From a virus (lineage: Duplodnaviria; Heunggongvirae; Uroviricota; Caudoviricetes): a stretch of 16,008 bases of DNA. Positions 1 to 16,008 of the stretch are shown here, one piece after another. The position numbers were made by a program, and so were the translations under genes. The stretch covers positions 1-16,008 of the IMG/VR virus record IMGVR_UViG_2675903413_000007. One strand, given 5' to 3'. Numbering within the stretch: the first letter of the stretch is position 1; each line of letters opens with the position of its first letter. The notes beneath the pieces were generated by a model. The model was not told where the DNA came from. It saw nothing but the letters and a program-made list of their open reading frames with translations, and did no database searches.

Positions 1-1236
1 CTACGATAACCGCGCATTCAACATGGCTATCTGTTCGTCGTTCATGTCATCAATCCACATACCGTAAATTTCATACACCATCTGCGCAGTTTCATGCCCC
101 ATTTGGCTGGCTATAAATGCCGGGTTCGCTCCTGCCGTCAACAGCCAGCAGGCAAAAGTATGCCGCGTATGGTACGGATTACGGCGGCGAATACCAGCAC
201 GTTTTACTGCTGCATTCCACCTTGCCCCCAAACTGCTTACCGAGTAATAAGGTTTTTGTTTTCCGTTACACACCCTGGGCATGAAAACAAAATGCAGTTT
301 TTGCTTTTCGGTTCTGCCGTACTCCCGATGATAAAAGGTGATTTCGCTTTTGCGATGATGCCCGGTCAGTTTGTATTGCTCCTTCAGTGCTTCAAGAGCA
401 GGCTGCAGTAGTGTTACTGTTCGGATCCCGGCATTTGTTTTTGGGGGACCGAACATATCAAGTATCGTCAGGTTTCTTCTGACATTCACTATTCCCTTTT
501 CGAGATCCACATCCTCCCACGCCAGAGCTGCCAGTTCCCCGTGACGAAGTCCTGAGTAAACGGCAAATTTCCACAAGTTCTGGCTCTGTCCTTTTTCACT
601 TTCCATTAATGCATTGAATTCTGTTTTAGATAACGGATCAGGCTTTATTCTGTTTCGCTGTAATTTTTTTACTCCTTCAAATGGTTTAGTTGATATAAAT
701 CCCGACTGATACGCAAAACGCAACAGCGAACAGAGCAGGGCGATATAGTTATCAACTGTGCGCACGGTTCTTCCTTTTTTGTTGGATCTTGGATTATCCA
801 GGTAAAGCGTTTCTCCATGCAGCAGTTCATTCCGGTAGTTTAAGATATCGCTATAACGAATATGTGATATCGGGGTACTTTCACAAATTATTATTCTGAG
901 TGTTTTTAATTGTGATTTCGTTTTCTTCATTGTGTTTGTTGTTAACTCTGTCTCTTTAATTTTTGTCCAGATATCACAAAGCTCTCCGAACGTTTTTATG
1001 ACTCTCGTTGTCACCATTTTTGCCCCAGTGCTGGACTGGGGAAAACGTCTTAAATACTCAAATTCACCGGAGTTTATTTCATGAACTATCAGCGATCTTA
1101 AATTTCCGGCCTTTTTAATATTACTGTTTGTAATCTCCCAGCCTTTTAATGTTTCCCGACATCGTTTTCCTCGAAACATGAACCAGATGCGAATGTATCT
1201 ACCTCTAATCTCGACACCTGTTGGTAATTTAGACAT
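1..1236 (-). CDS. intR: Phage integrase, tyrosine recombinase (Rac prophage IntR-like), 411 aa
   Basis: Complete 411-aa ORF with ATG at 1236-1234 and stop at 3-1. Translation matches the Rac integrase as I recall it; the C-terminal region carries the tyrosine-recombinase R...HxxR...Y pattern. Position next to the xis gene is typical. Confidence 0.93.
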   Translation of the reverse strand: MSKLPTGVEIRGRYIRIWFMFRGKRCRETLKGWEITNSNIKKAGNLRSLIVHEINSGEFEYLRRFPQSSTGAKMVTTRVIKTFGELCDIWTKIKETELTTNTMKKTKSQLKTLRIIICESTPISHIRYSDILNYRNELLHGETLYLDNPRSNKKGRTVRTVDNYIALLCSLLRFAYQSGFISTKPFEGVKKLQRNRIKPDPLSKTEFNALMESEKGQSQNLWKFAVYSGLRHGELAALAWEDVDLEKGIVNVRRNLTILDMFGPPKTNAGIRTVTLLQPALEALKEQYKLTGHHRKSEITFYHREYGRTEKQKLHFVFMPRVCNGKQKPYYSVSSLGARWNAAVKRAGIRRRNPYHTRHTFACWLLTAGANPAFIASQMGHETAQMVYEIYGMWIDDMNDEQIAMLNARLS

Positions 1237-1237
1237 A

Positions 1238-1453
1238 TCATGAGTCTTTGATAAACTGATTTATCTTTGGATAGTTGTACCAGATAATCCCTCGTTTGCT
1301 GTCTGGCTTACCTAAAGGAGATACTCGTTTGAAGTGGAAGCCCTCCACCCAACAGTTCTGGCGGTATGCTTCAATTTGTCTGGCCCCCAGACCAGTGCGA
1401 AGCATCAGGCCGTATTCAACCATCCACTCTTCATTAAAGATTACTTGTGCCAT
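1238..1453 (-). CDS. xisR: Excisionase / DNA-binding protein (Rac XisR/YdaQ-like), 71 aa
   Basis: Small ORF immediately upstream of int on the same strand. ATG at 1453 is preceded by AGGTGA 5-6 nt upstream; the track start at 1477 is a TTG. Translation [35 protein letters not shown]... matches Rac YdaQ from memory. Confidence 0.82.
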
Positions 1454-1531
1454 CGCATCACCTCTGGCAGGCGCCAATGTTAGACTGAAATTGACGCCCG
1501 ATGTTGATTATTAATAATCAGCTATGAAGTT

Positions 1532-1741
1532 TTAATTTGAATACAATGCAATTCTCGAGGACTGAAGTTTCTCGCAATTAAAATTTATCAGTTTTACTTT
1601 CTGCTCTCTGGAAACGCCTGCTTCTTTTTTACCTGAGAGCATTTTTTCGCATTCTGATTTCGTTAGTTTAGATTTTGAATATCTTGTCCAGTTAGTAGGA
1701 GTGCCACCTTCCTTTTCAATAGTGGCGGTAATTTTATACAT
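1532..1741 (-). CDS. ydaC: Rac prophage small protein YdaC-like (DUF1187), 69 aa
   Basis: ORF MYKITATIEKEGGTPTNWTRYSKSKLTKSECEKMLSGKK... in the conserved Rac order between xisR and ralR. Start taken at the internal ATG (1741) that overlaps the ralR stop by 8 nt; the track ORF extends to 1813. Confidence 0.65.
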   Translation of the reverse strand: MYKITATIEKEGGTPTNWTRYSKSKLTKSECEKMLSGKKEAGVSREQKVKLINFNCEKLQSSRIALYSN

Positions 1742-1928
1742 GAACACCTCCATTATTATTTCCAGTGGTTCGTTTATTCCATCTTTCGAGTGCTTCTTTT
1801 TCACTTCCACCATAACCGGTTCGGGATTCGCATCCGTTACACTTCGCTCGGTAATATCCTGAAATGGCTTTCACCGTTACTGATGGACAACCACAAAATG
1901 GACATGGTTTAACATTGTCATATCTCAT
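1734..1928 (-). CDS. ralR: Restriction alleviation protein Lar/RalR, 64 aa
   Basis: Translation MRYDNVKPCPFCGCPSVTVKAISGYYRAKCNGCESRTGYGGSEKEALERWNKRTTGNNNGGVHV matches Rac RalR from memory, including the CxxC...CxxC pattern. Start taken at the third Met of the track ORF. Confidence 0.88.
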   Translation of the reverse strand: MRYDNVKPCPFCGCPSVTVKAISGYYRAKCNGCESRTGYGGSEKEALERWNKRTTGNNNGGVHV

Positions 1929-1984
1929 AATTTTTCTCATAAAAAATATTTCAAGTTGGCGGTGCATTACACCGCCAGGCTGAA

Positions 1985-2794
1985 TTATTCCTCTGAATTA
2001 TCGATTACACTGTATTCCCCGGTTAATACAGAGGAATCTGCAGGATCGATTGTCAGTGGTTCCTTTTCATCCATTGATACTGCACGCTGGATCTCAATTG
2101 ATACGGGCAGATATTTGAACAGGCGACGAATAGCCGTTTTCTTTGCCATTTCTTCCCAGTGAGTTACCCACGGCCCGTTATTACCAGCTTTACTCAGGCT
2201 GCGCACCAGCTCAATCTGTTTGCGCGTCATAACTTCAAACTGAGTACCTCCGTCTTTCAGTCTTGCGACAGCATAGACGTGGGTAACCGGGGCATCTTCG
2301 TTTTCTCCCGGGCGGTGTATTAACTTTTCATCAAGGCCAAATTCGAAGCTAAACTCGTCACCTTCACGGACAACACGGGCTGACAGGCTGGCGATTTGAC
2401 CAGAACGGCGAGCCAGATCAATCATGCCGCGATAGCCAATGATTAGCTGAACGTTCTTTTTACCGCTCTTTTCGTTTTTATTACCAAAAGGCAGTAAATA
2501 TGCATGACCGAGGGCGCTACCTGGCTCAAGTCCGAGCTGTGAACACTGTACGATCGCACTGACAAAACTCATAGTGTCACAGTTTCCTAACGCCGGAACT
2601 TTACGAATTTCTGTGGTGGCGATACGGATCATACGTTCAGCCGTCATATGGCGTGGAAGAGCTGCTGCCAGTTGCTCTTTCATTGATGGCTGGTTAATAA
2701 AACTAATCACGTCGCTATTTTTAACTGCTGCTGGTGCACGGTTTCCCTGAGTTTTTTGCAGATCGGCTTTTGCGATTGGTGGTTGCTTAGTCAT
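1985..2794 (-). CDS. recT: Recombinase RecT (single-strand annealing protein), 269 aa
   Basis: Translation from [21 protein letters not shown]... to ...[10 protein letters not shown] matches E. coli Rac RecT over its full length as recalled. Start at 2794 overlaps the upstream recE stop, as in K-12. Confidence 0.95.
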
Positions 2795-3479
2795 TTGCAT
2801 ATTCCTTAGCCCAGCGGGGCAGTGATAATGTCTTAATAGCTGGCCATTCATCGGTATTCAGGCAGTCAGACAGGGTTCGCAGATTGCGGTGATATTCCTG
2901 TTGACCTGCCAGTTTTGCTTCTTCGCCCATCATGAAAATTTCAACCGGATAACGTCCGCATTCAATAGTTGTGCTGGCAACCAGAAAAACGAAAGTTGGC
3001 TGCACTCCAAACTGTGCTTCATAACCGTCACTGTAGAATGCATCCTGAACGTGATAGCGGTAGTCGTAATAAGCGGTTTTGAATCGTTGAATATCCGCCG
3101 TAGTTTTCACGTCCATGATCCAGTGAAATTCAGGGATAATTTTGTCCGGACGGCACCGACACAAAATTCCTGTTTCAGGATCTTCCCAGTAAATTGATGA
3201 TTCAGCGTGTCCGGCGCTTTCAACAAGCCATTGCCCCAGCGGCAAAGCCATAACGCTTTGATACATGAGTTCAATTTTCCGGCCTTCTTCCGCAGTGATA
3301 ACCGTTTTTCCTGTGCTTGCGCATTCCATCAGAAACGCTTTCTCTTCTTCTTTTCCGGCGTTTGTACGGCGGTTAAATTCAGGTGCTACGATAAAGCGGT
3401 TACTGAATTCTTCCGGTTCAAGTACGGGAAGATGCTCCAGAGTGGCTTCGCTCTTTATTTTTTGTAACTGTCCTCGATA
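2787..3479 (-). pseudogene. recE: 5'-truncated recE (exonuclease VIII) remnant: C-terminal ~230 codons only, no start codon
   Basis: The minus-strand frame is open from the stop at 3512-3510 down to 2787 and translates to ...[54 protein letters not shown]...[15 protein letters not shown], which matches the RecE C-terminal nuclease domain. Full RecE is ~866 aa. The homology and GC-rich composition stop near 3480, where the AT-rich island begins. The only in-frame Met is at 3329. Confidence 0.85.
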
Positions 3480-3484
3480 ATTTT

Positions 3485-4264
3485 TTGTACATTGATGGTG
3501 ATAGCCGCATTACGAATGATGAGAACAAGCCGTTGGGTATTAAGGCTTTGATCGAGCGACTTTGCGCAGAGAATGGTCAAGAAACAGATCATGAGGATTT
3601 CGATTCATGGTACTGCTATGATGCTTTGAAAGCGCGTTTGCAACATATGCGTTGGTTTCAATTTTATGATGCTGTTGAGATTATCGGAGATCTATTAAGA
3701 AAAAGAGATGTAGAAAGAGGCCATACTTGGGGTAAGAAGGCATTAGAAGACATTACTTTTACATCATATCGTCAGAAATTGAACGAGTTATTCGCATCTC
3801 GAAATATTGACTGGAAAATGAATTCTGCTGGTAGGTTAGAAACACCACTACCAAATGAATTAGAACAAAAAATCGATGAAACTAACAACTTATTGCAAGA
3901 CCAGTTTGAACCTGCAAGGAGGCACTATGTGAAAGCCCGGGCTTTTGCATTAGGTGCGCATAAGGATCCAGAAAATTCCATAAAAGAATCAATAAGTGCA
4001 ATAGAAAGCATGTGTCGGACTTATTATCCTTCAGCCTCAACCTTGGGCGATGTATTAAAACTGATGAGAAAAGAAAACACTATCTCACCTATGCTTTTAA
4101 CGGTGATAGAGAAATTTTACGCTTATACAAATGCAGAGCCAGCAGTAAGACATGGTAGCAACAAGGTTTCTTCTGTCTTGGAATACGATGCTGAATTCGT
4201 GTTGCATATATCAGCAGCATTTATTAGAACAATAATACAAAGAAAAGCTGTTTTGGATAACTAA
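3485..4264 (+). CDS. Hypothetical protein, 259 aa as drawn; start uncertain (TTG, no RBS); possible Abi/HEPN-like C-terminal module
   Basis: Long AT-rich ORF beginning exactly at the recE junction. The first codon is TTG with no Shine-Dalgarno, and the frame is open upstream to 3407 inside the recE remnant, so the native N-terminus may be lost. Predicted helical protein; the C-terminal segment ...[31 protein letters not shown]... loosely resembles abortive-infection C-terminal (HEPN-type) modules. The similarity is weak and unverified. Confidence 0.5.
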
Positions 4265-4350
4265 GTCAGACTTACAGCCAACTGACTGTCTCTTATTATT
4301 CAAAACATAATAATGTTAGGTCCGCTTATCGCACATCAGGGACAACCATA

Positions 4351-4381
4351 CTCAAATCTCCCACATTGCAGGAGATTTGAG
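4351..4381. repeat. Perfect 11-bp inverted repeat (ctcaaatctcc / ggagatttgag) with 9-nt spacer between convergent island genes
   Basis: Read directly from the sequence. No flanking T- or A-tract, so it is not a canonical intrinsic terminator; it could be an attenuator or a protein-binding palindrome. Confidence 0.4.
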
Positions 4382-4504
4382 TGTGAACACGTCACCGTGG
4401 AACAAAGACTGTATCATCGGTCAAAAAAGACCTGGTTATCTAGCAAAAACTTTTAACATACCAACAAACTTAATTTATTTAAATGCTATTAATACAACTA
4501 ATGT

Positions 4505-5731
4505 TTAAAATATATATTTTATATCAACCCAATTTTTAGCATTATTGTCAACTAAAGTAACGCTATGTCCATGACTTGAATTTATAGCATCGATTACTGA
4601 TTGTGATGGGTGTCCATGTGAATGACCATCCGACTGAGCTATAAACAAAACATTATCAAAATCCGCAATTATTTTTTGATTGAAATTTAATTCCGAACCA
4701 TGATGAGGTAATGTCATCACCCTTACCGTTTTAATCACTTTTGAATAGAATTCAGCCCATTTATTATAATACAATGATGTATTAAGCTTTGAGTCACCTG
4801 TTAATAAAACAGATCTAATTCCTTTATCTCTATCAAAGAGAAAATGTCGCTCAACCCGACTATTTCTAAAACTAAACCACTCACGAGAAGGCTCATTAAC
4901 AATTTTCATCTCAGCTTCTTGATTATTAATAATCAAGAGATTGATTGATATTACATTATGATCGCCAGCAAGTTTTAAATAACACTCGCGTAATTTCTTT
5001 CTTTCCCCCGTGCTAGTTAATATTTTAAGCATTTTTTTCTTACTTAACTCAGTAAAACCATTTTCTATTAACTGCTGACTGAAAATTTCAATTTTCTTAC
5101 GTGAACGGGGCGGTATCCAAGAAATAAATGACATTAGTGTATCAGTTTTGTTTTCCCCAATCCTTTTAACCAACCAACGGTTACATTCAACATCTCCTTT
5201 GGAGTCAGATATTTTCATTGGTAAGCTTACAGCGCTACCCTTAATGTTTTCACTATTAAATATAGGAGGGTCAAAATTATCATCAATATCACTGGGGTAA
5301 AGCAAAGATATATCTGCCTCAGGCAACCTTGATTTTATCCATTTGACAGGATCAATGAGAAATTCCATAAAAAGACCTGACGTAGAATTAGAGCATAGCT
5401 CCGATGCAATTAAGTAATAGCTATCATGGATATCTAGGTATGGTAATACAACCTTGCGTATTTTGTTATCTACAAGCTGACATAAATGGTCAAATCCATT
5501 TATATGGTCTGAATCCAAATGAGAGATGTATACCACATCAATATATTTCTCATCAATATTAAAGAGAGATTTAGCCACATCCATCTCCCTACGCAACGCA
5601 TTTAATTGGTCACTTCCGCAGTCATACACATAACTGTAAAGCAAACTACCATCCCTTCCCCTCAGTCCGCCTAAACTAAATCCACCCTGGCCAACGGGAA
5701 ACAATCTTTTATGAAATACTTCTCCGCTCAT
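4505..5731 (-). CDS. Standalone ComEC/Rec2-type metallo-beta-lactamase-fold hydrolase (predicted nuclease), 408 aa
   Basis: ATG at 5731 is preceded by AAGAAGGA about 7 nt upstream. Ordered MBL motifs are visible: FPVGQGGFSL near the N-terminus, YDCGSD, ISHLDSDHINGF (HxDxDH variant, as in ComEC ISHADQDH), LPHHGSELN (ComEC HHGS motif) and SDGHSHGHPS (C-terminal GHP). A ~250-aa insertion lies between motif 2 and the HHGS motif. There are no transmembrane competence-channel segments. Very AT-rich. Confidence 0.75.
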   Translation of the reverse strand: MSGEVFHKRLFPVGQGGFSLGGLRGRDGSLLYSYVYDCGSDQLNALRREMDVAKSLFNIDEKYIDVVYISHLDSDHINGFDHLCQLVDNKIRKVVLPYLDIHDSYYLIASELCSNSTSGLFMEFLIDPVKWIKSRLPEADISLLYPSDIDDNFDPPIFNSENIKGSAVSLPMKISDSKGDVECNRWLVKRIGENKTDTLMSFISWIPPRSRKKIEIFSQQLIENGFTELSKKKMLKILTSTGERKKLRECYLKLAGDHNVISINLLIINNQEAEMKIVNEPSREWFSFRNSRVERHFLFDRDKGIRSVLLTGDSKLNTSLYYNKWAEFYSKVIKTVRVMTLPHHGSELNFNQKIIADFDNVLFIAQSDGHSHGHPSQSVIDAINSSHGHSVTLVDNNAKNWVDIKYIF

Positions 5732-6445
5732 ATATCCTTCTTACACCCTAACGTGATCATAAAATTGTCTTAAAGTTAAGTTTAAAGCTAAAAAGTCACA
5801 GCTCATTCCAACTCGTGAGCAATAGGAATGTATATTCAATCAGTTAGAGGATCAACCCGATTTTCTCTAATGAGATTTCGCAACGCAGTACGAACAGCAG
5901 CTACTTCTGCCATCTCATTAACAACCACACTGGACTACAATCCCCTAAGTTCTACAGACTGTAACCATATCCTCTTCACAGAAATAATCTGATTAATGCT
6001 GAAGGTCATCTTTCTCGACGCGAATGTATGACATAACAACCTCAGTTAATTATCTTTCGATAGAAAAATACCTTCACAAAAGGTTTAAGCAACCCATCAC
6101 AAGACAACACGCTAAGCTTGCCTTGTAAGCGTCCTGCTTAACCGAACAGTTCGCTTTCAGAGGATCTCCGGAGAACAGCTCCGATGCCTTATAAGGCCAA
6201 TGCTCGCTCCTCGCTCACTGCGGACCTAAGGTTTGGTCAGCTTGTTCGCACTCTGCCAAAAGCGGGAGTTACTCCCATTCGGTGTTAATCAATGTAGAGC
6301 AGATCAATCAACGACAAAGAAAATGAGAGGCATATCACTACTCATATGAAAATTATTGTAGTAAAGTGAGCCGTAAGTTCATCATTTATAAATCATATAG
6401 CATATATGTTATATCAATTTTAATTTAAATGGCAGAATAATTACC

Positions 6446-7150
6446 ATGGAAAAAATTAAAGCTCCTTGTCCATATTGTAAAGGTGAAAAAAATTGCCACA
6501 TAATAGGCCATAAAAAAAGAGAATGGAGTGAGGATGATGGGGGCAACTATTTTTGGGCTGAAAGTGAATACAAATTATTAGAGTGTATGGGGTGCGACGG
6601 AATATTTACATATATTAAATCCCGTCACAGTGAAGATTACGACATTGAAAGAGATGAGTCAGGCTATGATTGTATGGTATATAACTATCATATATCAACA
6701 TATCCCACTCAAGAGCAAGAAGAGATTAGACCAACTTGGTTTGGTGAGATATTAAACAAAGATCGTCAGCTGTATGTAATAATGAACGAAATGTACATCG
6801 CATTTCAAAATAAATCATTCATTTTAGCGGCGATTGGACTTAGAACTATTTTTGACAGAACAGTTGAGGTTCTAAATATTCATCCAGGATATACATTAGG
6901 CCAGAAGGTTGACATTCTTAAAGAGGAAGGTTTTATTGGGGAAACAGAAAGGAGCCAACTTAAAATTGTAACCGAAGCTGGCAACTCAGCTGCACACAGG
7001 ACATGGGCACCGAACGAAACTGAATTTAAATCGCTTTTGGTAATTATAGAAAATTTTGTAATGCGAACAATACTAAAAAATGAGGATATATTTAAGATTA
7101 CAGAAAAATTACCTGCGAAATATCCAAGACCTCCCAAAAAGCAAGAATAA
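6446..7150 (+). CDS. Zn-ribbon + DUF4145-like (HEPN-superfamily) protein, 234 aa
   Basis: The N-terminus has CPYC...(35 aa)...CMGC, a CxxC-CxxC zinc ribbon. The C-terminal ~100 aa contain AAIGLRTIFDRTVEVL and the motif TEAGNSAAHRTW, which matches the conserved GNxAAH signature of DUF4145 domains as I recall it. AT-rich; divergent from the MBL gene. Confidence 0.7.
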   Translation: MEKIKAPCPYCKGEKNCHIIGHKKREWSEDDGGNYFWAESEYKLLECMGCDGIFTYIKSRHSEDYDIERDESGYDCMVYNYHISTYPTQEQEEIRPTWFGEILNKDRQLYVIMNEMYIAFQNKSFILAAIGLRTIFDRTVEVLNIHPGYTLGQKVDILKEEGFIGETERSQLKIVTEAGNSAAHRTWAPNETEFKSLLVIIENFVMRTILKNEDIFKITEKLPAKYPRPPKKQE

Positions 7151-7559
7151 TGTACGTAAGTGTAAATAGAGCTAAGAGATTATATATTGACTCTGGTTAT
7201 CTCTATTAGCACATGCTTTTTGTAATGCCTTAACTGATTATTTAAACTCCTGTCAGCTTTTCGCTCAAAGCGGACTAAAGTGTTGGCTTGTGACTGACTT
7301 AGCGCATTTAAGGAAGTGGTGGTGGTGACGGGGTGTTGTGTCCCATTTCCACAGAATAAATCAGAGAAACTATAGCGGCTGTAATGGCAATCTATGGTCT
7401 TGCTATTGCTCTTATGGATCACCTTTCTGATTGATTTCATATTGGCGAGGTAACGGGAGTTAAGTAGAATAGCTGCGGGTGCTTGAGGCTGTCTGCCTCG
7501 GGCATGAACACCAAAGGCAGATAGAGAAAAGCCCCAGTTAACATTACGCGTCCGGCAAG

Positions 7560-7640
7560 ACGCTTAACATTAATCTGAGGCCACATCTATGCTTTGCATA
7601 CGTAGATTAGCCTCTTACCGACCAAAAGGTCAAGGAGAAG
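7560..7640 (-). ncRNA. sok: Expected Sok-type antisense RNA opposite the mok/hok leader (position approximate)
   Basis: Inferred from hok-family locus architecture only; no promoter or terminator for it was pinned down in the sequence. Confidence 0.25.
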
Positions 7641-7837
7641 CAGGCTATGAAGCAGCAAAAGGCGATGTTAATCACCCTGATCGTCATCTGTTTAACCGTT
7701 ATAGTGACGGTACTGGTAACGAGGAAAGACCTCTGCGAGGTACGAATCCGAACCGACCAGACGGAGGTCGCTGTCTTCACAGCTTACGAACTTGGGGAGT
7801 AAGAGGACCAGCGGGGAGAAATCCCCGCAACCTCTGA
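7589..7837 (+). CDS. mok: Mok-type overlapping reading frame (modulator of killing) of the hok locus
   Basis: An 82-codon ORF in a different frame that starts upstream of hok and fully overlaps it, which is the canonical mok arrangement. Confidence 0.5.
   Translation: MLCIRRLASYRPKGQGEAGYEAAKGDVNHPDRHLFNRYSDGTGNEERPLRGTNPNRPDGGRCLHSLRTWGVRGPAGRNPRNL
7647..7802 (+). CDS. hokD: Hok-family type I toxin (HokD/RelF-like membrane peptide), 51 aa
   Basis: ATG at 7647 with AAGGAGA about 10 nt upstream. Translation MKQQKAMLITLIVICLTVIVTVLVTRKDLCEVRIRTDQTEVAVFTAYELGE is near-identical to E. coli HokD/RelF and Gef/HokC as recalled. It has a single transmembrane helix and the conserved Cys. Confidence 0.9.
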   Translation: MKQQKAMLITLIVICLTVIVTVLVTRKDLCEVRIRTDQTEVAVFTAYELGE

Positions 7838-8265
7838 TGTATTATGCATCCTCAACGCAGCCACAGTTAACCTGATTGGCGGGTTTATTTCATCTGTAAA
7901 TATTTTTATAAAAATAATGCCCACGCACAGCATAAAACAAAAAGTATTACAGATAAAAAAGGAACGTAATGTGCAGATTTGTTGTTTTCCATATTTACTC
8001 ACCTTAATATGATTAATCCTGATAGGGTTGTTATTTCAGCGGTTTTCAAATGAGATATTATGGTGATCTGACAAATTTGCATAGCATTAAAATTTAATTT
8101 GTTTAACCACTTTTAATAATAAGCGTTGTTTGCATCCCAGCAATCTGTTGTTTGGTTTTTATTCCATTAAGGTGGGGGCTTTACACTGGAACCAGTTTAT
8201 TTATACTTTATACGTCAGCCTGAACAACTGGCATCTGCTGCACTGCGCCATCGAGAGATTGAGAA

Positions 8266-8865
8266 ATGGCGCATATACAACTGGTCAAACAAACTTCTTC
8301 TGGTTTACTTCTCCCGGCGACGCCGGAGAGTTGCGATTTTCTGCATCAAATCAAAATAGGTGAGTGGATACACGCAGACTTTAAGCGTGTGCGTAACTAC
8401 GCATTCCACAAGCGTTTTTTCAAACTCCTGCAACTGGGATTCGATTACTGGACTCCGGTCGGTGGGGCGATCACGCCTCGCGAACGAGAACTGCTGTCTG
8501 GTTTCGTTGATTACCTGTGCGAATCAGTTGGTCGGGAACACACGCCAGCCCTGAGTGATGCCGCAGAGCAATACCTTAACACCGTTGCGACTCGTAGAAC
8601 CCGGGATACGGCGTTGCTAAAGTCGTTTGAGGCTTTCCGCGAGTGGGTAACCATTCAGGCCGGATTTTACACCGAGCATATTTATCCGGACGGTAGCCGT
8701 GGGCGTCGGGCAAAATCCATCGCTTTTGCGAATATGGACGAAGTCGAGTTTCAGCAGGTTTATAAATCTGTACTGAATGTGCTGTGGAACTGGATTCTGT
8801 TCCGTAAATTCTCCTCTCAGGAGGAAGTTGAAAATGTGGCCGCACAACTACTGGAGTTTGCGTAA
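8266..8865 (+). CDS. Conserved lambdoid nin-region protein of unknown function, 199 aa
   Basis: GC-normal ORF whose stop overlaps the next start (TAATG at 8863-8867), i.e. translationally coupled to the YbcO-like gene. I do not recognise a specific family with certainty. Confidence 0.6.
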   Translation: MAHIQLVKQTSSGLLLPATPESCDFLHQIKIGEWIHADFKRVRNYAFHKRFFKLLQLGFDYWTPVGGAITPRERELLSGFVDYLCESVGREHTPALSDAAEQYLNTVATRRTRDTALLKSFEAFREWVTIQAGFYTEHIYPDGSRGRRAKSIAFANMDEVEFQQVYKSVLNVLWNWILFRKFSSQEEVENVAAQLLEFA

Positions 8866-9155
8866 TGGTGAATTTACGTAAAGCGGCTAAAGGCCAGATG
8901 TGCCAGATCAGAATCCCTGGCTACTGCAATCACAATCCCGAAACCTCTGTGCTGGCGCATTACAGGCTGGCGGGGACGTGCGGAACAGCGACAAAACCAC
9001 ACGATATGCAGGCGGCGATAGCCTGTAGCTCATGCCACGATCTAATCGACGGGCGGGTAAAAACCAGCGATTACACCAAAGAAGAATTGCGCCTGATGCA
9101 TGCTGAAGGGGTTTTTCGCACACAAGAAATCTGGAGAAAGAAAGGTCATTTATGA
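8865..9155 (+). CDS. YbcO-like nin-region protein (DUF1364, Zn-binding putative nuclease), 96 aa
   Basis: Translation MVNLRKAAKGQMCQIRIPGYCNHNPETSVLAHYRLAGTCGTATKPHDMQAAIACSSCHD... shows the Cys/His pattern and overall similarity to DLP12 YbcO as recalled. Its stop overlaps the next start (ATGA at 9152-9155). Confidence 0.7.
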   Translation: MVNLRKAAKGQMCQIRIPGYCNHNPETSVLAHYRLAGTCGTATKPHDMQAAIACSSCHDLIDGRVKTSDYTKEELRLMHAEGVFRTQEIWRKKGHL

Positions 9156-9694
9156 TTTACCCAACGAATACAGGAAAAAGCGGAGAACACCTTCGCCTCA
9201 CCACGCTGGAAAGTGTCTGGATTCAGGGAAAACTACGTATGTGGGGGCGCTGGTCGTATATTGGCGGTGGCAGGTCAGGGAATATGTTCAATCAGTTGTT
9301 GGCATCCAAAAAACTGACGAAAACAGCCATTAATGAAGCCCTGCGCAGAATGAAAAAAGCGGGAATAGAGAAAGCTGAGCTGGAAGCGTTTTTGCGAGAG
9401 ATGATCAACGGCAAGCAAAAGAGCTGGCTGGCGCATTGTACTGATGCAGAGGCGTTATGTATTGATCGAGTCATAAGTGAGGTGCTGGCAGAGCATCCAG
9501 GATTGATTTGCATTCTCCGGCAACGCTATGAAGGGCGGGGGATGACTAAGCGCAAAATGGCTGAATTGCTAAATGATGCACACCCAGAGTGGTGTTTTAG
9601 CACATGCGAAAAACGGATTGCTAATTGGTTAGCTGTTGCTGAGTATGCCCTATATATTCCCATGCGTGAATCATTTGCTGAGAAAATGGCTTGA
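9152..9694 (+). CDS. Putative late-gene antiterminator Q (non-lambda, phage 21/82-like type), 180 aa
   Basis: Last gene of the coupled nin-like operon, followed within ~80 bp by a strong intrinsic terminator (tR'-like) and further downstream by a phage-21-type lysis cassette. The call rests on position and context, not on a recognised motif. Confidence 0.5.
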   Translation: MIYPTNTGKSGEHLRLTTLESVWIQGKLRMWGRWSYIGGGRSGNMFNQLLASKKLTKTAINEALRRMKKAGIEKAELEAFLREMINGKQKSWLAHCTDAEALCIDRVISEVLAEHPGLICILRQRYEGRGMTKRKMAELLNDAHPEWCFSTCEKRIANWLAVAEYALYIPMRESFAEKMA

Positions 9695-9773
9695 TTTCTT
9701 ACGTATAAACTGCTTCAATTTTGCTATGCTTCGCAAAGCTGTATCGCGAGGCGGATTGCAGACATGGACATCG

Positions 9774-9803
9774 TAAAAAAACCGCTTAATGCGGTTTTTT
9801 TAC
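9774..9803 (+). terminator. Intrinsic terminator (tR'-like): aaaaaa-ACCGC-ttaat-GCGGT-ttttttt
   Basis: GC stem with 5-nt loop followed by a 7-T run; the upstream A-tract makes it potentially bidirectional. Located just after the Q-like gene. Confidence 0.7.
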
Positions 9804-10121
9804 GTCAGGAAAGCAGGGGAGAATGCTGCTAGTTGGGCAACTGGTCTTTCTGCTCCAAATTATAACAGAGACCAGTTATAGTTTCGGTGCTGTGTTTTTT
9901 TTACAATATTGTGATAACACATTGCTGGCGGGAGTTTTGATATTTCTTGGCAGGGGCTGATGATGCGTTATCCTGATGTCGTCAACTCATATAAAATGAG
10001 ATGAGAGATCATTGCAGGGTGGTTTGTAATTCGCTGTTTAGCGGGACAATATGTTGTCTGATACAAGACACCCGACGCCTCAGATTACTATAATAAAGAC
10101 GAAGCATCCTTTGTATTGACC

Positions 10122-10147
10122 AACCGCCTGTTTAGGCGGTTCTTTTT
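10122..10147 (+). terminator. Intrinsic terminator: AACCGCCT-gttt-AGGCGGTT-cttttt
   Basis: Perfect 8-bp stem and 4-nt loop followed by a T-rich tract, read directly from the sequence. Confidence 0.6.
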
Positions 10148-10679
10148 GGGCTGGTTTATTGTATGCCAAATGATTATTAAAAAGGTTGTGTTAATAACAA
10201 AATCCGAAATAATATGCCTGCATATTTTTATCTTGCTTATATTCTGCATATTGTGCATAGCAGGCTCATCCCTGCAATCAAAACTGTATGATGAGTATTT
10301 TTTGTTTTCCTTTTTTCCAGTCATCTGATGATGACCTGCTTCTTTTTAATCCGGATCGACATCAGTTTTTTAAGATAATTCCTGCGAGTTATATGCATAA
10401 ATACCACAAACTCCGCATTTTATGTGGTTGGGAGTTGCCGGGCGCGCAGTGAGTTTGCTAAGAAAACTCCTGCATGGTGAATCCCCCTGTGCGGTGGGGT
10501 GATACCATTAACCTTTTCTGTCGCCGACAGGTATCACGAACATTTTGTTCACCGGGAGGCACCCGGCACCATGCACTTCAATAGATTCTCTCCACATTAT
10601 GGATATTCTTTCAGAATATCCCACGCAGACTTTGTGTAAATGTTAACAAATGTGCGTTTTATTTGATCTGATTCGCTGT

Positions 10680-10709
10680 TTGAGCGTCCAAAACAACGGT
10701 ATATATAAT
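10680..10709 (+). promoter_or_regulatory. Candidate sigma70 promoter for the lipoprotein moron (-35 ttgagc, 18-bp spacer, -10 tataat)
   Basis: Consensus -10 hexamer TATAAT at 10704-10709 with a TTGAGC -35 at 10680-10685, about 30 bp upstream of the lipoprotein ATG and its GAGGA RBS. Confidence 0.4.
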
Positions 10710-10738
10710 CCTTTACTATATGACATATGTGAGGAAAA

Positions 10739-11167
10739 ATGGGTTTTCGTAGCGCATCAATTCTTACGTTGATTATTAGTGGGATTATTATCGGGTGCAC
10801 TGATGCTGTATCGACAAATTATCATGACCGTACATCATATTACTCCGATAAAGTAATAGAGACACAGTATGTGAGTTCATCTGAACGTACTTCTGATGTT
10901 AGTGAGGATATCCGTCTGTATGCCCATCAAATCAAGAGCGCCATCGAAAAACAGTTCGGGGATGCGAGTAAGTATTCAGGAAAAGAGTGTACACTGAGAA
11001 TGCATATGGCCCCGAATGGCCTTCTACTGGAGGTTAAAAGAGAAAGTGGAGACCTCGATTTATGTCGTGAAGCGATGAATGCGATAAAGAATGCTGATAT
11101 ACCTGCCCCCCCTTCGCCGGAAGTATATAAAGTATTTCAAAATGGGGTGCTGGATTTTAAACCCTGA
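10739..11167 (+). CDS. Lipoprotein with TolA domain III-like C-terminal domain, 142 aa
   Basis: Signal peptide with lipobox IIGC; GAGGA RBS. The C-terminal segment YAHQIKSAIEKQFGDASKYSGKECTLRMHMAPNGLLLEVKRESGDLDLCREAMNAIKNADIPAPPSPEVYKVFQNGVLDFKP aligns closely with the C-terminus of E. coli TolA (YAGQIKSAIESKFYDASSYAGKTCTLRIKLAPDGMLLDIKPEGGDPALCQAALAAAKLAKIPKPPSQAVYEVFKNAPLDFKP, from memory). Confidence 0.8.
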   Translation: MGFRSASILTLIISGIIIGCTDAVSTNYHDRTSYYSDKVIETQYVSSSERTSDVSEDIRLYAHQIKSAIEKQFGDASKYSGKECTLRMHMAPNGLLLEVKRESGDLDLCREAMNAIKNADIPAPPSPEVYKVFQNGVLDFKP

Positions 11168-11317
11168 TATTTATTGTTTTGTAATAAACGGTTTCGGCTT
11201 AGGTTTGTTCTGACACAGCTACGGCACTGAGCTAAATTTAGCGGATAGTCAGCTCTGAGCCAGTGGCGGACGTAACAACTACTATTGCTGAGATTTTAAT
11301 GGATTGAGGAGCAAGAA

Positions 11318-11713
11318 GTGGGATTAAAGAAAATCGTTATGTTGACTTTTTGGGTCGGTTTTGTTGCGGGATGCACACCTTTACACCCTTCAGATTGCCA
11401 CAAAACTACTGCTACAGGTAGTTGCAGTTCAGGACGCTGGGATGATCAGGATGAATGGGGGGCGCAAGCGCGGGGAATCAGAGCTGCAATTAATGCCAAA
11501 CTTGATGAGCCGCATAACTGGAAAGGGAAAAAATGCAGGTTGCATATGGAATTCTCTCAGGATGGCACGGCGTTAAAAATATCTACCAGTAACGGTGATA
11601 AAGCCTATTGCGAAGCGATAAAGTCCGCAGCTCATAAAGCCAAATTTCCGGCCTTCAACAATCCGGAAGTCTACAGAGATTTTCAGAAATCTGGCTTTGA
11701 CATGCGAGGTTAG
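11318..11713 (+). CDS. Second lipoprotein with TolA domain III-like C-terminal domain (divergent paralog), 131 aa
   Basis: GTG start at 11318 preceded by GAGGAG; lipobox VAGC. The C-terminus KCRLHMEFSQDGTALKISTSNGDKAYCEAIKSAAHKAKFPAFNNPEVYRDFQKSGFDMRG keeps the TolA-III pattern (C...L...DG.....GD...C.A...A.....P.....VY..F...). Confidence 0.75.
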   Translation: MGLKKIVMLTFWVGFVAGCTPLHPSDCHKTTATGSCSSGRWDDQDEWGAQARGIRAAINAKLDEPHNWKGKKCRLHMEFSQDGTALKISTSNGDKAYCEAIKSAAHKAKFPAFNNPEVYRDFQKSGFDMRG

Positions 11714-11838
11714 CTCTTCAATTACTATATCTCATTCATAGCAAACTGACAGATTTGATGATGTTCTATATACGAAACCTGTGATGTCAAGTCTGAGCTA
11801 ATACAAATAAACATAATATCAGAGAAATACATTTTATT

Positions 11839-11862
11839 AGCTCGCTACGGCGAGCTTTTTAT
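11839..11862 (+). terminator. Intrinsic terminator after the lipoprotein moron: AGCTCGC-tacg-GCGAGCT-ttttt
   Basis: Perfect 7-bp stem, 4-nt loop and T-tract, read directly from the sequence. Confidence 0.6.
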
Positions 11863-11964
11863 ATTGCATCGTCTCCAGCATATATATCAATTAAGGCTCT
11901 GATTGATGTGTCTGAAAGCCTACACATAATAACTATGCCATCCGTTCCGTGCGGAGGTGAGGCT

Positions 11965-12180
11965 ATGAAATCCATGGACAAAATTTCAACAGGCATTGCC
12001 TACGGCACCTCCGCAGGCAGTGCTGGCTACTGGTTTTTACAGTTGCTCGATAGAGTAACTCCGTCACAGTGGGCTGCAATCGGTGTGCTGGGTAGCCTGG
12101 TATTTGGCCTGCTGACGTACCTGACAAACCTTTATTTCAAGATTAAAGAAGATAAGCGCAAGGCTGCGAGAGGTGAATAA
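11965..12180 (+). CDS. Phage 21-type pinholin S (dual-start MKSM motif), 71 aa
   Basis: Translation [71 protein letters not shown] matches S21 as recalled. GGAGGTGA RBS upstream; stop overlaps the endolysin start (TAATG). The track ORF begins earlier, at 11908. Confidence 0.88.
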
Positions 12181-12677
12181 TGCCTCCATCATTACGAAAA
12201 GCCGTTGCTGCTGCTATTGGTGGCGGAGCAATTGCTATAGCATCAGTGTTAATCACTGGCCCAAGTGGTAACGATGGTCTGGAAGGTGTCAGCTACATAC
12301 CATACAAAGATATTGTTGGTGTATGGACCGTATGTCACGGGCATACAGGAAAAGACATCATGCTCGGTAAAACGTATACCAAAGCAGAATGCAAAGCACT
12401 CTTGAATAAAGACCTTGCCACTGTCGCCAGACAAATTAACCCATACATCGAAGTCGATATACCGGAAACAACGCGCGGCGCTCTTTACTCATTCGTTTAC
12501 AACGTGGGTGCTGGCAATTTCAGAACATCGACGCTTCTTCGCAAAATAAACCAGGGCGATATCAAAGGCGCATGTGATCAGTTACGTCGCTGGACATATG
12601 CTGGCGGTAAGCAATGGAAAGGTCTCATGACTCGTCGTGAGATTGAGCGTGAAATCTGTTTGTGGGGTCAGCAATGA
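12180..12677 (+). CDS. SAR endolysin (phage 21 R-like lysozyme, GH24), 165 aa
   Basis: N-terminal signal-anchor-release segment [18 protein letters not shown] followed by a T4-lysozyme-like catalytic region (LEG...KDI...WTV). Near-identical to the R21 sequence as recalled. Confidence 0.93.
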
Positions 12678-13138
12678 ACAGAGTAACCGCGATTATCTCC
12701 GCTCTGGTTATCTGCATCATCGTCTGCCTGTCATGGGCTGTTAATCATTACCGTGATAACGCCATTACCTATAAAGCCCAGCGCGACAAAAATGCCAAAG
12801 AACTGAAGCTGGCGAACGCGGCAATTACTGACATGCAGATGCGTCAGCGTGATGTTGCTGCGCTCGATGCAAAATACACGAAGGAGTTAGCTGATGCGAA
12901 AGCTGAAAATGATGTTCTGCGTGATGATGTTGCCGCTGGTCGTCGTCGGTTGCACATCAAAGCAGTCTGTCAGTCAGTGCGTGAAGCCACCACCGCCTCC
13001 GGCGTGGATAATGCAGCCTCCCCCCGACTGGCAGACACCGCTGAACGGGATTATTTCACCCTCCGGGAACGACTGGTAATGATGCAGGCCCAACTTGAAG
13101 GTGCTCAGCAATACATAACCGAGCAGTGTTTAAAGTAA
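12674..13138 (+). CDS. Inner-membrane spanin Rz (i-spanin)
   Basis: Translation [68 protein letters not shown]... matches lambda-type Rz. ATG overlaps the endolysin stop (ATGA). Confidence 0.93.
12894..13079 (+). CDS. Outer-membrane spanin Rz1 (o-spanin lipoprotein), embedded in Rz in the +1 frame
   Basis: Translation [52 protein letters not shown]... has lipobox VVGC and a proline-rich region; classic embedded Rz1. Confidence 0.9.
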
Positions 13139-13275
13139 AATCTTAACTACAATATGATTCATTTTGATGATTGTTTCATAAGGAACAGTGAAGTAAGATC
13201 TAAGAGGAGTTAAATTTTATACAGTATAATCATAATATTGCAGCAAGGTGGTTATAATTGAAAGAATATTTAGAT

Positions 13276-14733
13276 ATGAATACATCTCATGTAAGAGTTG
13301 TTACTCATATGTGTGGGTTCCTGGTTTGGCTCTATAGTCTTTCAATGTTGCCACCAATGGTTGTAGCATTGTTTTATAAAGAAAAAAGCCTGTTCGTTTT
13401 CTTTATAACTTTCGTTATATTTTTTTGCATTGGTGGCGGAGCGTGGTATACAACTAAGAAATCTGGCATTCAATTACGTACCCGTGATGGGTTTATTATA
13501 ATTGTAATGTTTTGGATTTTGTTTTCTGTTATTAGTGCATTCCCTTTATGGATTGACTCAGAACTTAATTTAACGTTCATTGATGCTCTGTTTGAAGGGG
13601 TTTCTGGAATAACAACAACAGGAGCAACTGTAATTGATGATGTTAGTTCATTACCTCGGGCATATTTGTACTATCGGTCACAGTTAAATTTTATAGGTGG
13701 TTTAGGAGTTATTGTTCTGGCGGTTGCTGTATTGCCATTATTGGGTATTGGTGGTGCAAAGCTTTATCAGTCAGAAATGCCGGGGCCATTTAAGGATGAC
13801 AAACTCACTCCCCGCCTGGCCGATACGTCACGGACACTGTGGATAACTTATTCTTTATTAGGTATTGCTTGTATTGTCTGTTATAGACTTGCAGGAATGC
13901 CTTTGTTTGATGCTATTTGTCACGGGATTTCCACAGTTTCGCTTGGTGGTTTCTCAACTCATAGCGAGAGTATCGGATATTTTAATAACTATTTGGTTGA
14001 GCTGGTGGCTGGTTCTTTTTCCCTGCTATCGGCTTTCAACTTCACTCTTTGGTATATTGTTATTAGCAGGAAAACGATAAAACCTTTAATCAGAGATATT
14101 GAACTTCGTTTCTTTCTGTTAATAGCCTTAGGGGTGATCATTGTTACCTCTTTCCAGGTCTGGCATATAGGTATGTATGACTTGCATGGAAGTTTTATTC
14201 ATTCGTTTTTTCTTGCCAGCTCCATGCTCACTGATAATGGTTTAGCTACGCAGGATTATGCAAGTTGGCCCACGCACACGATAGTGTTTTTGCTGTTGTC
14301 AAGTTTCTTTGGGGGATGTATAGGTTCAACTTGTGGTGGAATTAAGTCACTTCGATTTCTTATACTTTTCAAACAAAGCAAACACGAGATAAATCAGCTT
14401 TCTCATCCCAGAGCGTTGTTGAGTGTAAATGTAGGAGGGAAGATAGTTACAGATCGTGTAATGAGGTCTGTATGGAGTTTCTTTTTTCTTTATACACTCT
14501 TCACGGTGTTTTTTATACTGGTGTTAAATGGTATGGGATATGATTTTCTTACATCATTTGCAACAGTGGCTGCATGTATTAATAATATGGGATTAGGTTT
14601 TGGGGCTACTGCATCGTCATTCGGAGTGCTTAATGACATTGCAAAATGTTTAATGTGCATAGCTATGATTCTTGGTCGCCTTGAAATTTATCCTGTTATT
14701 ATATTGTTTTCAGGTTTTTTTTGGCGCTCCTAA
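13276..14733 (+). CDS. trkG: Potassium uptake protein TrkG (Trk system membrane subunit), 485 aa
   Basis: Translation from MNTSHVRVVTHMCGFLVWLYSL... matches Rac-encoded TrkG of E. coli K-12. Multi-pass membrane protein; AT-rich gene. The track ORF starts 18 nt earlier on a TTG. Confidence 0.93.
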   Translation: MNTSHVRVVTHMCGFLVWLYSLSMLPPMVVALFYKEKSLFVFFITFVIFFCIGGGAWYTTKKSGIQLRTRDGFIIIVMFWILFSVISAFPLWIDSELNLTFIDALFEGVSGITTTGATVIDDVSSLPRAYLYYRSQLNFIGGLGVIVLAVAVLPLLGIGGAKLYQSEMPGPFKDDKLTPRLADTSRTLWITYSLLGIACIVCYRLAGMPLFDAICHGISTVSLGGFSTHSESIGYFNNYLVELVAGSFSLLSAFNFTLWYIVISRKTIKPLIRDIELRFFLLIALGVIIVTSFQVWHIGMYDLHGSFIHSFFLASSMLTDNGLATQDYASWPTHTIVFLLLSSFFGGCIGSTCGGIKSLRFLILFKQSKHEINQLSHPRALLSVNVGGKIVTDRVMRSVWSFFFLYTLFTVFFILVLNGMGYDFLTSFATVAACINNMGLGFGATASSFGVLNDIAKCLMCIAMILGRLEIYPVIILFSGFFWRS

Positions 14734-14870
14734 TATATGGCTGATTTATAATTGTGAGTTTAATATTATGTTGACTCACTCATTGATCCAATACCTAACT
14801 TTACCAGCAACCCCTCCGTCCCCAGTAGCACTGGCTGCTGGGGTGCGTTTTATTCATAAAGCAAGGCTGT

Positions 14871-15161
14871 ATGAGCGAGAAATTAAAGATAGTCTATCGC
14901 CCATTACAAGAATTGTCACCGTATGCGCACAACGCCAGGACGCACAGCCCTGAGCAGGTGGCACAACTGGTAGAAAGTATTAAGCAATTCGGCTGGACTA
15001 ATCCGGTGCTGATTGACGAAAAGGGCGAAATTATTGCGGGTCACGGTCGTGTTATGGCGGCTGAAATGCTCAAAATGGATTCTGTTCCGGTCATTGTTCT
15101 GTCTGGCCTGACGGATGAGCAGAAAAAGGCGTACCGCCTGGCAGATACCTTCTGCCCGTAA
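14871..15161 (+). CDS. ynaK: ParB-like nuclease-domain protein (Rac YnaK-like), 96 aa
   Basis: Translation [67 protein letters not shown]... carries the ParB N-terminal domain signature ([11 protein letters not shown], resembling the ParB GxRRxxA box). It sits downstream of trkG as in K-12. Confidence 0.78.
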
Positions 15162-15162
15162 G

Positions 15163-16008
15163 GTGAATGGTAAGGCGCTTTCAGCTGATATAACACTGAC
15201 GCCGAAAGATATTGGTACGCTTAACTCAACAACAATGTCATTCAGCGGTGGTGCTGGTTGGTTCAAATTAGCAACGGTAACCATGCCACAGGCGAGTTCT
15301 GTTGTTTCAATTACGTTGATTGGTGGCGCGGGATTTAACGTGGGGTCACCTCAACAGGCAGGTATATCTGAACTTGTTTTGCGTGCAGGTAATGGTAATC
15401 CGAAGGGGATTACTGGTGCTTTATGGCAGCGCACATCGACAGGGTTTACAAATTTTGCCTGGGTCAATACATCTGGTGATACTTACGATATTTACGTTGC
15501 AATCGGAAATTATGCGACTGGTGTAAATATTCAATGGGATTATACCAGTAATGCCAGCGTGACGATTCATACGTCACCAGCATATTCTGCTAATAAGCCG
15601 GAAGGGTTAACGGACGGTACAGTTTATTCACTCTATACGCCATCAGAGCAGTTTTATCCGCCTGGCGCACCAATCCCGTGGCCATCAGATACCGTTCCGT
15701 CTGGCTATGCCCTGATGCAGGGGCAGACTTTTGACAAATCTGCATACCCGAAACTTGCAGCCGCTTATCCGTCAGGCGTGATCCCTGATATGCGTGGCTG
15801 GACGATTAAGGGCAAACCCGCCAGTGGTCGTGCCGTATTGTCTCAGGAACAGGACGGCATTAAATCGCACACCCACAGCGCCAGCGCATCCAGTACGGAT
15901 TTGGGGACGAAAAACACATCGTCGTTTGATTACGGAACCAAATCCACGAATAACACCGGGGCGCATACCCATAGTATTAGCGGGACTGCAAATAGTGCCG
16001 GTGCGCAC
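15163..16008 (+). pseudogene. Side tail fibre gene fragment (Stf-like), 5'-truncated and running off the 3' end of the window
   Basis: Frame open from 15163 to the window end with no convincing start. Translation ...[106 protein letters not shown] shows the repeated G.H.H His-box motifs of lambdoid and T-even tail-fibre distal regions. The ORF track does not list it, presumably because it lacks a start and a stop. Confidence 0.75.

Follow-up and report, generated by a model that had tools for sequence, protein, structure and literature searches.

When a complete recT gene stands beside a recE gene of which only the 3' part is left, and when this remnant runs directly into genes of low GC content, the question arises as to whether the break in recE marks the edge of inserted foreign DNA or has come about in another manner, and what the remaining RecE fragment may still do. 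We address this question for a window of 16,008 nucleotides, that is, the whole stretch of phage-type DNA analysed here. A first-pass annotation had taken the breakpoint for the left edge of a cargo island that had been inserted there or had replaced part of the gene, and had regarded the RecET recombination module as probably non-functional. Our analysis leads with high confidence to a different view of the breakpoint: the window represents the left arm and the late-regulatory/lysis region of a Rac-type cryptic prophage of Escherichia coli which carries a 10,334-bp internal deletion.

The assignment to Rac rests on gene order and sequence identity. The order intR-xisR-rcbA-ralR-recT-recE is found beside ttcA, with trkG and lysis genes to the right (Table 1), and the same order of the left arm, including ralR/RalA, characterizes Rac of E. 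coli K-12, the identity to K-12-type copies being 99.9–100%. In contigs carrying the same junction as the window, for example contig L015, ttcA is located just past intR, that is, at the left prophage end. Likewise, the position on the ttcA side and a pattern of decay in which racR, ydaS/ydaT and kilR are lost together are shared with other Rac variants. Unlike in Rac of K-12, where recE has all of its 866 codons and the racR-ydaST module is retained, recE is cut here and joined to a cargo slot. The genes that were kept comprise int/xis, ralR/RalA, recT, most of the block of defence-type cargo, hok/sok, the lysis genes and trkG.

Table 1. Features of the window (positions are those of the whole stretch).
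Feature	Position	Strand	Evidence
intR, Rac integrase, 411 aa, intact	1..1236	-	ORF, translation, intR annotation in matching S40 and DH5alpha regions
xisR excisionase, 71 aa, intact	1238..1453	-	S40/DH5alpha annotation, translation
rcbA, 69 aa, intact	1532..1741	-	S40/DH5alpha annotation, translation
RalA antitoxin sRNA	1557..1735	+ (opposite strand)	Rfam RF02694, 225 bits vs gathering score 170
ralR toxin gene, 64 aa, intact	1734..1928	-	S40/DH5alpha annotation, translation
recT, full length, 269 aa	1985..2794	-	ORF, Pfam, comparison with S40
recE remnant, RecE 655–866 (212 codons and stop)	2787..3425	-	megablast, three-way alignment, phmmer, residue numbering
Longest start-codon ORF in remnant, Met687–866, 180 aa, reported by gene callers	2787..3329	-	ORF list
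Deletion junction, 3-bp microhomology TAC common to both parents	3423..3425		three-way alignment
5'-truncated candidate defence gene (intact 297 aa; PADLOC PDC-S32, Pfam AbiJ_NTD4)	3423..4264	+	alignment, profiles
Strong hairpin between convergent PDC-S32 and MBL-fold genes	4347..4385		-31.7 kcal/mol, z = -4.1
MBL-fold metallo-hydrolase cargo gene, 408 aa, transcribed toward junction	4505..5731	-	ORF, S40 context, profiles
DUF4145 cargo gene, 234 aa	6446..7150	+	ORF, S40 context, profile
True right boundary of variable cargo slot	7370		homology with Rac prophages of other cargo resumes
sok RNA and hok-family toxin gene (hok CDS 7647–7802)	7477..7802	+	conserved prophage backbone right of cargo

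The extent of the recE remnant could be established at the level of single bases. In megablast comparisons with 5426 complete E. coli genomes, the similarity of the recT/recE segment to Rac stops at window position 3425, and up to this point (position 1526 of a query spanning 1900–4400) the remnant is 100% identical to many strains. In the numbering of the 866-residue protein, which is used throughout, the left breakpoint falls after R654 or V655, and residues 1–654 are gone. It had been proposed earlier that ~230 C-terminal codons remain and that the recE region extends to position 3479; only a 3' fragment is indeed left, but it is somewhat shorter than proposed, and bases 3426–3509, through which the recE frame stays open to an in-frame stop at 3510–3512, are the antisense of the neighbouring PDC-S32 gene and not recE. 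From this stop down to the ATG at 3329 (Met687), neither ATG, GTG nor TTG occurs in the recE frame, in agreement with the claim that the gene has no start. That the remnant encodes part of RecE is beyond question: in a phmmer search of PDB sequences, its 212 residues correspond to residues 54–265 of the chain of 3H4R, the RecE nuclease domain, with E = 7e-146, a match far beyond chance.

The adjacent recT is full length, as had been claimed. Its translation is free of internal stops and scores 188.9 bits against the Pfam RecT profile (cut-off 24), its ATG overlaps the recE stop region, and a Shine-Dalgarno sequence of its own, AAGGA, is located within the 3' end of recE. Comparison with recT of E. 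coli strain S40 reveals zero mismatches, and the S40 product carries the same accession as that in the DH5alpha record.

The origin of the break became apparent from the comparison with the Rac-type prophage of S40, in which recE is complete. Positions 1–3425 of the window align to this prophage with 99.88% identity and positions 3423–15147 with 99.74% identity, both in the same orientation; in S40, the two matches are 10,334 bp apart, and this interval is missing from the window. A three-way alignment shows that the identity flips from one parental sequence to the other at the trinucleotide TAC present in both parents, and that the breakpoints share no similarity beyond these 3 bp. Based on the S40 annotation, the interval comprises (i) codons 1–654 of recE, racC, ydaE, kilR, a sieB-family gene and ydaF, (ii) a divergent HTH pair at the positions of racR (the repressor) and ydaS, as well as ydaT, (iii) a gene at the ydaU position, ydaV, and DUF1627 and DUF977 genes, with replication genes among these, and (iv) an anti-phage dGTPase gene along with the first 52 nt of the 297-aa PDC-S32 gene. 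The arrangement is best explained by a single 10,334-bp deletion with its left end inside recE and its right end 52 nt into the candidate defence gene. Both genes that meet at the junction are truncated at their 5' ends and face apart, which identifies the junction as the product of a deletion and not of an insertion. Since the breakpoints have 3 bp in common and nothing else, homologous and site-specific recombination are ruled out and illegitimate recombination is indicated; the ends were joined at TAC, which could have come about by replication slippage or by microhomology-mediated end joining. At 100% identity, neither remnant has diverged from intact copies in other genomes, which indicates that the deletion is recent. 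Recombination between two lambdoid prophages was considered separately and rejected, the homology at the breakpoints being limited to 3 bp.

It has to be kept in mind that S40 is a close model and not the direct ancestor, its host flank being ~1% different, and it is from this model that we infer the deleted content and the number of steps. The same arrangement might have been reached in several successive steps, for instance if the segment from racR to ydaV had disappeared first and a further deletion had come later. Rac has been reported to decay piecemeal (PMC5700373), and strain S3, which harbours a prophage of the same type, has independently lost a 3.6-kb segment from racR to ydaV. In the window, however, one junction is visible and both of its sides are colinear with S40, so that a single event is the simplest explanation; furthermore, no intermediates were encountered among contigs with the 180-aa recE-derived ORF or the 259-aa ORF on the other side of the junction. 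We thus consider a stepwise loss to be unlikely, and favour a single deletion.

Such a deletion can be expected to have affected the prophage as a whole. With both the repressor region and the replication genes lost, the prophage would no longer be inducible or able to replicate. As int and xis are intact, excision would be predicted to remain possible, though not the production of phage. The gene recT is normally silent in K-12; here it is intact but stripped of the repressor-controlled early promoter region, and would most likely be silent as well. That the deletion was tolerated may be due to the repressor having gone together with the toxic genes under its control, that is, ydaS/ydaT and kilR. 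The joint loss of these genes fits published evidence: racR can be deleted only if ydaS goes as well, and the Rac toxin genes do not occur apart from their controllers (PMC5700373). One might go further and speculate that the deletion was a selected step of 'domestication' rather than neutral decay: a single cut would have removed racR-ydaST, kilR and inducibility, and RecT on its own might be made constitutively in small amounts, its gene now being downstream of the MBL-fold gene, and thereby raise recombination with incoming phage or other foreign DNA. We regard this scenario as improbable.

What the RecE fragment may still do depends on which parts of the nuclease have been retained. The residues D748, D759 and K761 of the PD-(D/E)XK motif are present (RPDKII at 746 and IMDVKT at 757), while His652, which is named among the active-site residues in a structural review (PMC11611040), falls in the deleted part. 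Residues 1–53 of the 3H4R chain find no counterpart in the remnant; assuming that the chain represents RecE 606–866 preceded by four extra N-terminal residues, these would correspond to 49 native residues. Consistently, the match to the Pfam DUF3799 PD-(D/E)XK profile begins only at profile position 41, with the first 40 positions missing, and the remnant scores 474 bits against the NCBIfam model of exodeoxyribonuclease VIII, for which the cut-off is 1269. The nuclease domain of RecE has been delimited as 564–866 (PMC11611040), and E588, with 279 residues, is an active form of the protein (PMC11257833). With its extent of 655–866, the remnant is shorter than these two forms and the 3H4R chain, that is, shorter than every active or structured form considered, which is in line with the earlier suggestion that it falls below the minimal active fragment; whether the complete domain is taken to reach from 564, 588 or ~606 to 866, the remnant does not contain it. 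If translation were to start at Met687, the product would even begin inside the loop 665–698, which is disordered in the crystal (PMC11611040).

Signals for expression were sought as well. A consensus-only scan of the minus strand from 3330 to 4540 yielded no match resembling a sigma-70 promoter, and in the wider promoter/terminator scan the counts were no higher than in shuffled sequence, with nothing useful near the junction. A terminator-like site was noted on the plus strand at 3439–3454, within the truncated PDC-S32 gene. The strong hairpin listed in Table 1, between the convergent PDC-S32 and MBL-fold genes, may block read-through toward the recE remnant and recT, although it lacks a U-tract and is not a canonical terminator. 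Because there is neither a start codon before Met687 nor a promoter, because His652 is absent and because the N-terminal part of the nuclease fold is missing, the RecE stub is almost certainly dead. Hence, the earlier view of the RecET module as probably non-functional appears justified for the exonuclease half, while recT itself is intact.

One may nevertheless ask whether the deletion could have created a working mini-module, in which read-through from the MBL-fold gene transcribes the 180-aa RecE ORF and recT so as to provide a short exonuclease and an annealase, or in which constitutive RecT was selected for. The MBL-fold gene is indeed located upstream on the same strand, the intervening hairpin is devoid of a U-tract, recT possesses its own Shine-Dalgarno sequence, the three motif residues are kept, and the remnant has not diverged at all from intact copies. 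This last observation is explained equally well by a recent deletion, however, and the minus strand between 3330 and 4540 offers no promoter-like site. Furthermore, the ATG at 3329 is not preceded by a good Shine-Dalgarno sequence, and a product initiated there, in the loop, would be devoid of His652 and of ~80 residues of the crystallised domain, whereas the smallest active or structured forms begin at 564, 588 or ~606 (PMC11611040, PMC11257833 and the PDB chain, respectively). We hold a functional short module to be very improbable, and return to the reading of the locus as a deletion with a dead RecE stub.

The genes to the right of the junction deserve attention in their own right. The intact 297-aa gene matches PADLOC PDC-S32 over its full length (E = 1.6e-33); in the window, the first 52 nt of the gene are missing, as is its promoter, and the first possible start, a TTG at 3485, would yield a protein of 259 aa. 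The cargo block occurs with 99–100% identity in 9 complete E. coli genomes, in each of which the match begins exactly at window position 3423. Among these nine, the left flank of the block was examined in S40 only. There, the cargo follows replication genes as well as DUF977 and dGTPase genes, precedes hok and the late-regulatory genes DUF1367/DUF1364/DUF1133, and is located ~10 kb from a full-length recE. Comparison of S40 with strain S3, which holds DUF262 and TPR genes at the same place, delimits a variable cargo slot that begins immediately to the right of the DUF977 gene and ends at the equivalent of window position 7370. The window retains the right ~3.95 kb of a module of ~5.9 kb, the right breakpoint being ~1.95 kb inside it. 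The low-GC 'island' is thus located in its normal slot of the prophage. More generally, defence-type genes are swapped in such prophages at this slot, with the DUF977 gene on one side and hok on the other.

These observations bear directly on the proposal that a low-GC cargo island entered recE or took the place of the 5' part of the gene, which would make the breakpoint the island's left edge. It is true that the GC content falls from ~47% to 33–39% just right of the junction, and that the genes located there resemble defence cargo. In S40, however, the same cargo occupies its native slot after the DUF977 and dGTPase genes, far from recE, and an uninterrupted target is not seen, the sequences flanking the junction being 10.3 kb apart in the intact S40 prophage. 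Insertion also leaves out of account that the first cargo gene is itself 52 nt short at the junction, and that the whole S40 stretch from recE codon 654 to the breakpoint in PDC-S32 is missing from the window. Flanking repeats, which the first-pass annotation had suggested to look for as att-like or target-site duplications at the junction and near 7150–7600, were not found; comparison of 3400–3500 with 7100–7700 gave short matches at chance level only. Neither is the breakpoint common to all Rac variants, a possibility raised at the same time: at least 80% of recE is present in 1623 of the 5426 complete E. coli genomes. An insertion therefore seems highly improbable, and the proposal gives way to a deletion that happened to end within the cargo module.

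The deletion allele is not confined to the window. Carriers were found by exact-protein look-ups of the two truncated ORFs, and a 43-mer spanning the junction served as a probe. This 43-mer recurs unchanged in at least 11 further contigs, covered by 12 retrieved loci, from NCBI, ENA and Logan assemblies. A contig of GCA_001269265.1 matches the window along 14,264 bp at 100% identity; further carriers are GCA_907172445.1, the complete chromosome CP099166.1, and several ENA metagenome and Logan run assemblies. By megablast, the junction was encountered in 0 of the 5426 complete RefSeq E. coli genomes, and exact scans with the 43 bases gave no match in GTDB representative genomes or in JGI metagenome contigs. 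In principle, such rarity could mean that assembly had falsely linked two parts of an intact prophage, but since the very same junction is found in 11 independently assembled contigs, from draft as well as complete NCBI genomes, ENA metagenomes and Logan assemblies of separate sequencing runs, and no repeat is present at the breakpoints which could have misled an assembler (just 3 bp being common), an artefact can be excluded for practical purposes. As a separate matter, an engineered deletion was considered and rejected: no scar sequence is present, and both metagenome assemblies and assemblies of unrelated public sequencing runs contain the allele.

The carriers also provide some indication of how the allele has spread. 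Three of them have long host flanks, which differ among each other by at most 1 SNP in 6.5 kb, while those of S40, S3 and a K-12-type record deviate from the three by ~1%. The simplest reading is that one deletion event occurred and has since been passed on within an apparently single E. coli lineage. A metagenome-derived carrier (L018) exhibits 13 SNPs, all left of the junction, and next to its intR, where ttcA would be expected, the tail end of a different prophage is found; this suggests a tandem prophage and some recombination in its left arm. Because of these SNPs and the different left flank, the allele is not strictly confined to one uniform background.

It is instructive to compare the remnant with known truncations of RecE. 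Like the 564–866, E588 and 3H4R forms, it is a C-terminal fragment containing the PD-DXK motif, and it is paired with a full-length RecT; unlike these, it starts at 655 (or at Met687 if translated) and is devoid of His652, a promoter and a start codon. The engineered forms make use of plasmid promoters, whereas a recognisable promoter is absent from the remnant. A second comparison is with the sbcA-type rearrangements that activate recET: according to work of Chu, Templin and Clark from 1989, some of these rearrangements are deletions which reportedly create an in-frame fusion of an upstream gene with the 3' part of recE. The present deletion resembles them in that it lies upstream of and within recE in Rac, and leaves the 3' nuclease-coding part together with recT. 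It differs in that an in-frame partner is missing: the recE frame enters the antisense of the PDC-S32 gene and meets the stop at 3510–3512 with no start codon on the way. In contrast to sbcA-type activation, the predicted outcome is inactivation, the retained part of RecE being too short. The resemblance to both the engineered fragments and the activating rearrangements is thus superficial.

Rac is mosaic in composition, half of it having been lost from the majority of E. coli strains; recE is listed among its best-conserved genes (PMC5700373). In this light, the present case is one of ordinary prophage decay by a well-known kind of event, and there is nothing here that would surprise a specialist. 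No earlier description of this particular allele appears to exist, and we consider its value to be one of bookkeeping only. It does provide a clean, base-resolved example of Rac-type decay in which a microhomology-mediated deletion takes the repressor along with its toxic genes. For annotation, it follows that the 180-aa 'PD-(D/E)XK/DUF3799' ORF and the 259-aa ORF are best recorded as 5'-truncated pseudogenes arising from one deletion; they neither constitute a short RecE or a RecET module nor mark the boundary of an insertion.

Many other assemblies contain the same 180-aa Met687 ORF beside recT; in the collection searched, this ORF is indexed in 204 blocks. The other recE pseudogenes arose differently, that is, by a frameshift or nonsense mutation which splits the gene into an ORF of 659 to 704 aa and the 180-aa ORF, or by insertion of IS1 (L010), and two further loci (H79 and H83) exhibit recE deletions with other breakpoints. 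The early region, which is missing in the window, is still present in the other recE pseudogene assemblies that were examined.

The slot extending from the DUF977 gene to hok is a site at which cargo is swapped in Rac-type prophages. Its content in strain S40, the reference with an intact prophage, comprises genes for an anti-phage dGTPase, PDC-S32 (a PADLOC candidate defence family), an MBL-fold hydrolase and a DUF4145 protein; in strain S3 the same slot is occupied by DUF262 and TPR genes, and in a DH5alpha-labelled record it likewise holds a DUF262 gene. The similarity of the window's MBL-fold protein to defence-associated MBL proteins is weak and confined to the C-terminal part, the match to LmuA (2.4e-12) being followed by weaker ones to Avs1a, DRT and PDC-M48B, while searches of PADLOC and NCBIfam with the DUF4145 protein yielded no matches. 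The hairpin formed by the inverted repeat is very stable (-31.7 kcal/mol; z = -4.1) and is devoid of a U-tract on both strands.

Coordinates of the cargo slot and of features in the window
Feature	Position	Strand	Remark
Cargo slot	window 3423-7370; L001 (S40) 6052-11948; L004 (S3) 11053-14773
Inverted repeat, 15-bp arms	window 4347-4385		between convergent PDC-S32 and MBL-fold genes
MBL-fold protein, 408 aa	window 4505-5731	(-)
DUF4145 protein gene	window 6446-7150	(+)
STnc100 sRNA match, 86.6 bits	window 10442-10628		upstream of two TolA C-terminal-domain genes
Two adjacent genes, TolA C-terminal-domain proteins	window 10739-11167 and 11318-11713

The 180-aa ORF starting at Met687, the longest start-codon ORF in the recE remnant, is called in many assemblies and indexed in 204 blocks. 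In these assemblies, recE is broken either by a frameshift or stop, leaving a 659- to 704-aa ORF along with the 180-aa ORF, or by IS1 (split genes are found, for example, in L005, L008, L010, L013 and L014). Pseudogenisation of recE is therefore frequent and has followed several routes. Within the left 3.4 kb, only four differences separate the window from S40, and one of these alters RecE residue 794 (window 3019), which is Glu in the window and in the 3H4R chain vs Val in S40.

Among carriers of the deletion junction, the metagenome contig L018, in which the junction is identical, exhibits 13 SNPs, all of them left of the junction. In its segment 1-2977, the neighbour of intR is the tail end of a different prophage, with HTH/Peptidase_M78, hypothetical and DUF4376 genes, instead of ttcA, which suggests that prophages lie in tandem at the intR/ttcA site. 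In the complete genome CP099166.1 (L016), insertion of an additional transposase gene (L016 14840-16002), whose HTH_Tnp_1/rve domains are of the IS3-family type, separates hok from the DUF1367 gene.

Other deletions were likewise encountered. Strain S3 has lost ~3.6 kb at L004 10337-10363, independently of the window's deletion, and with it racR, ydaS, ydaT, ydaU, ydaV and part of the DUF1627 gene; kilR and full recE are nonetheless retained. The window prophage itself bears a second scar (window 14871-15161 and about 15147-15388), at which its ParB/Srx (ynaK-type) gene is shortened to 96 aa. Similarity to S40 stops at 15147, and only from about 15388 does the sequence match again, now to a truncated tail-fibre gene; the structural-gene block is therefore absent in its entirety, as it is from many Rac remnants. 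In the late region, the STnc100 match and the TolA C-terminal-domain genes directly precede the holin, lysozyme and Rz genes.
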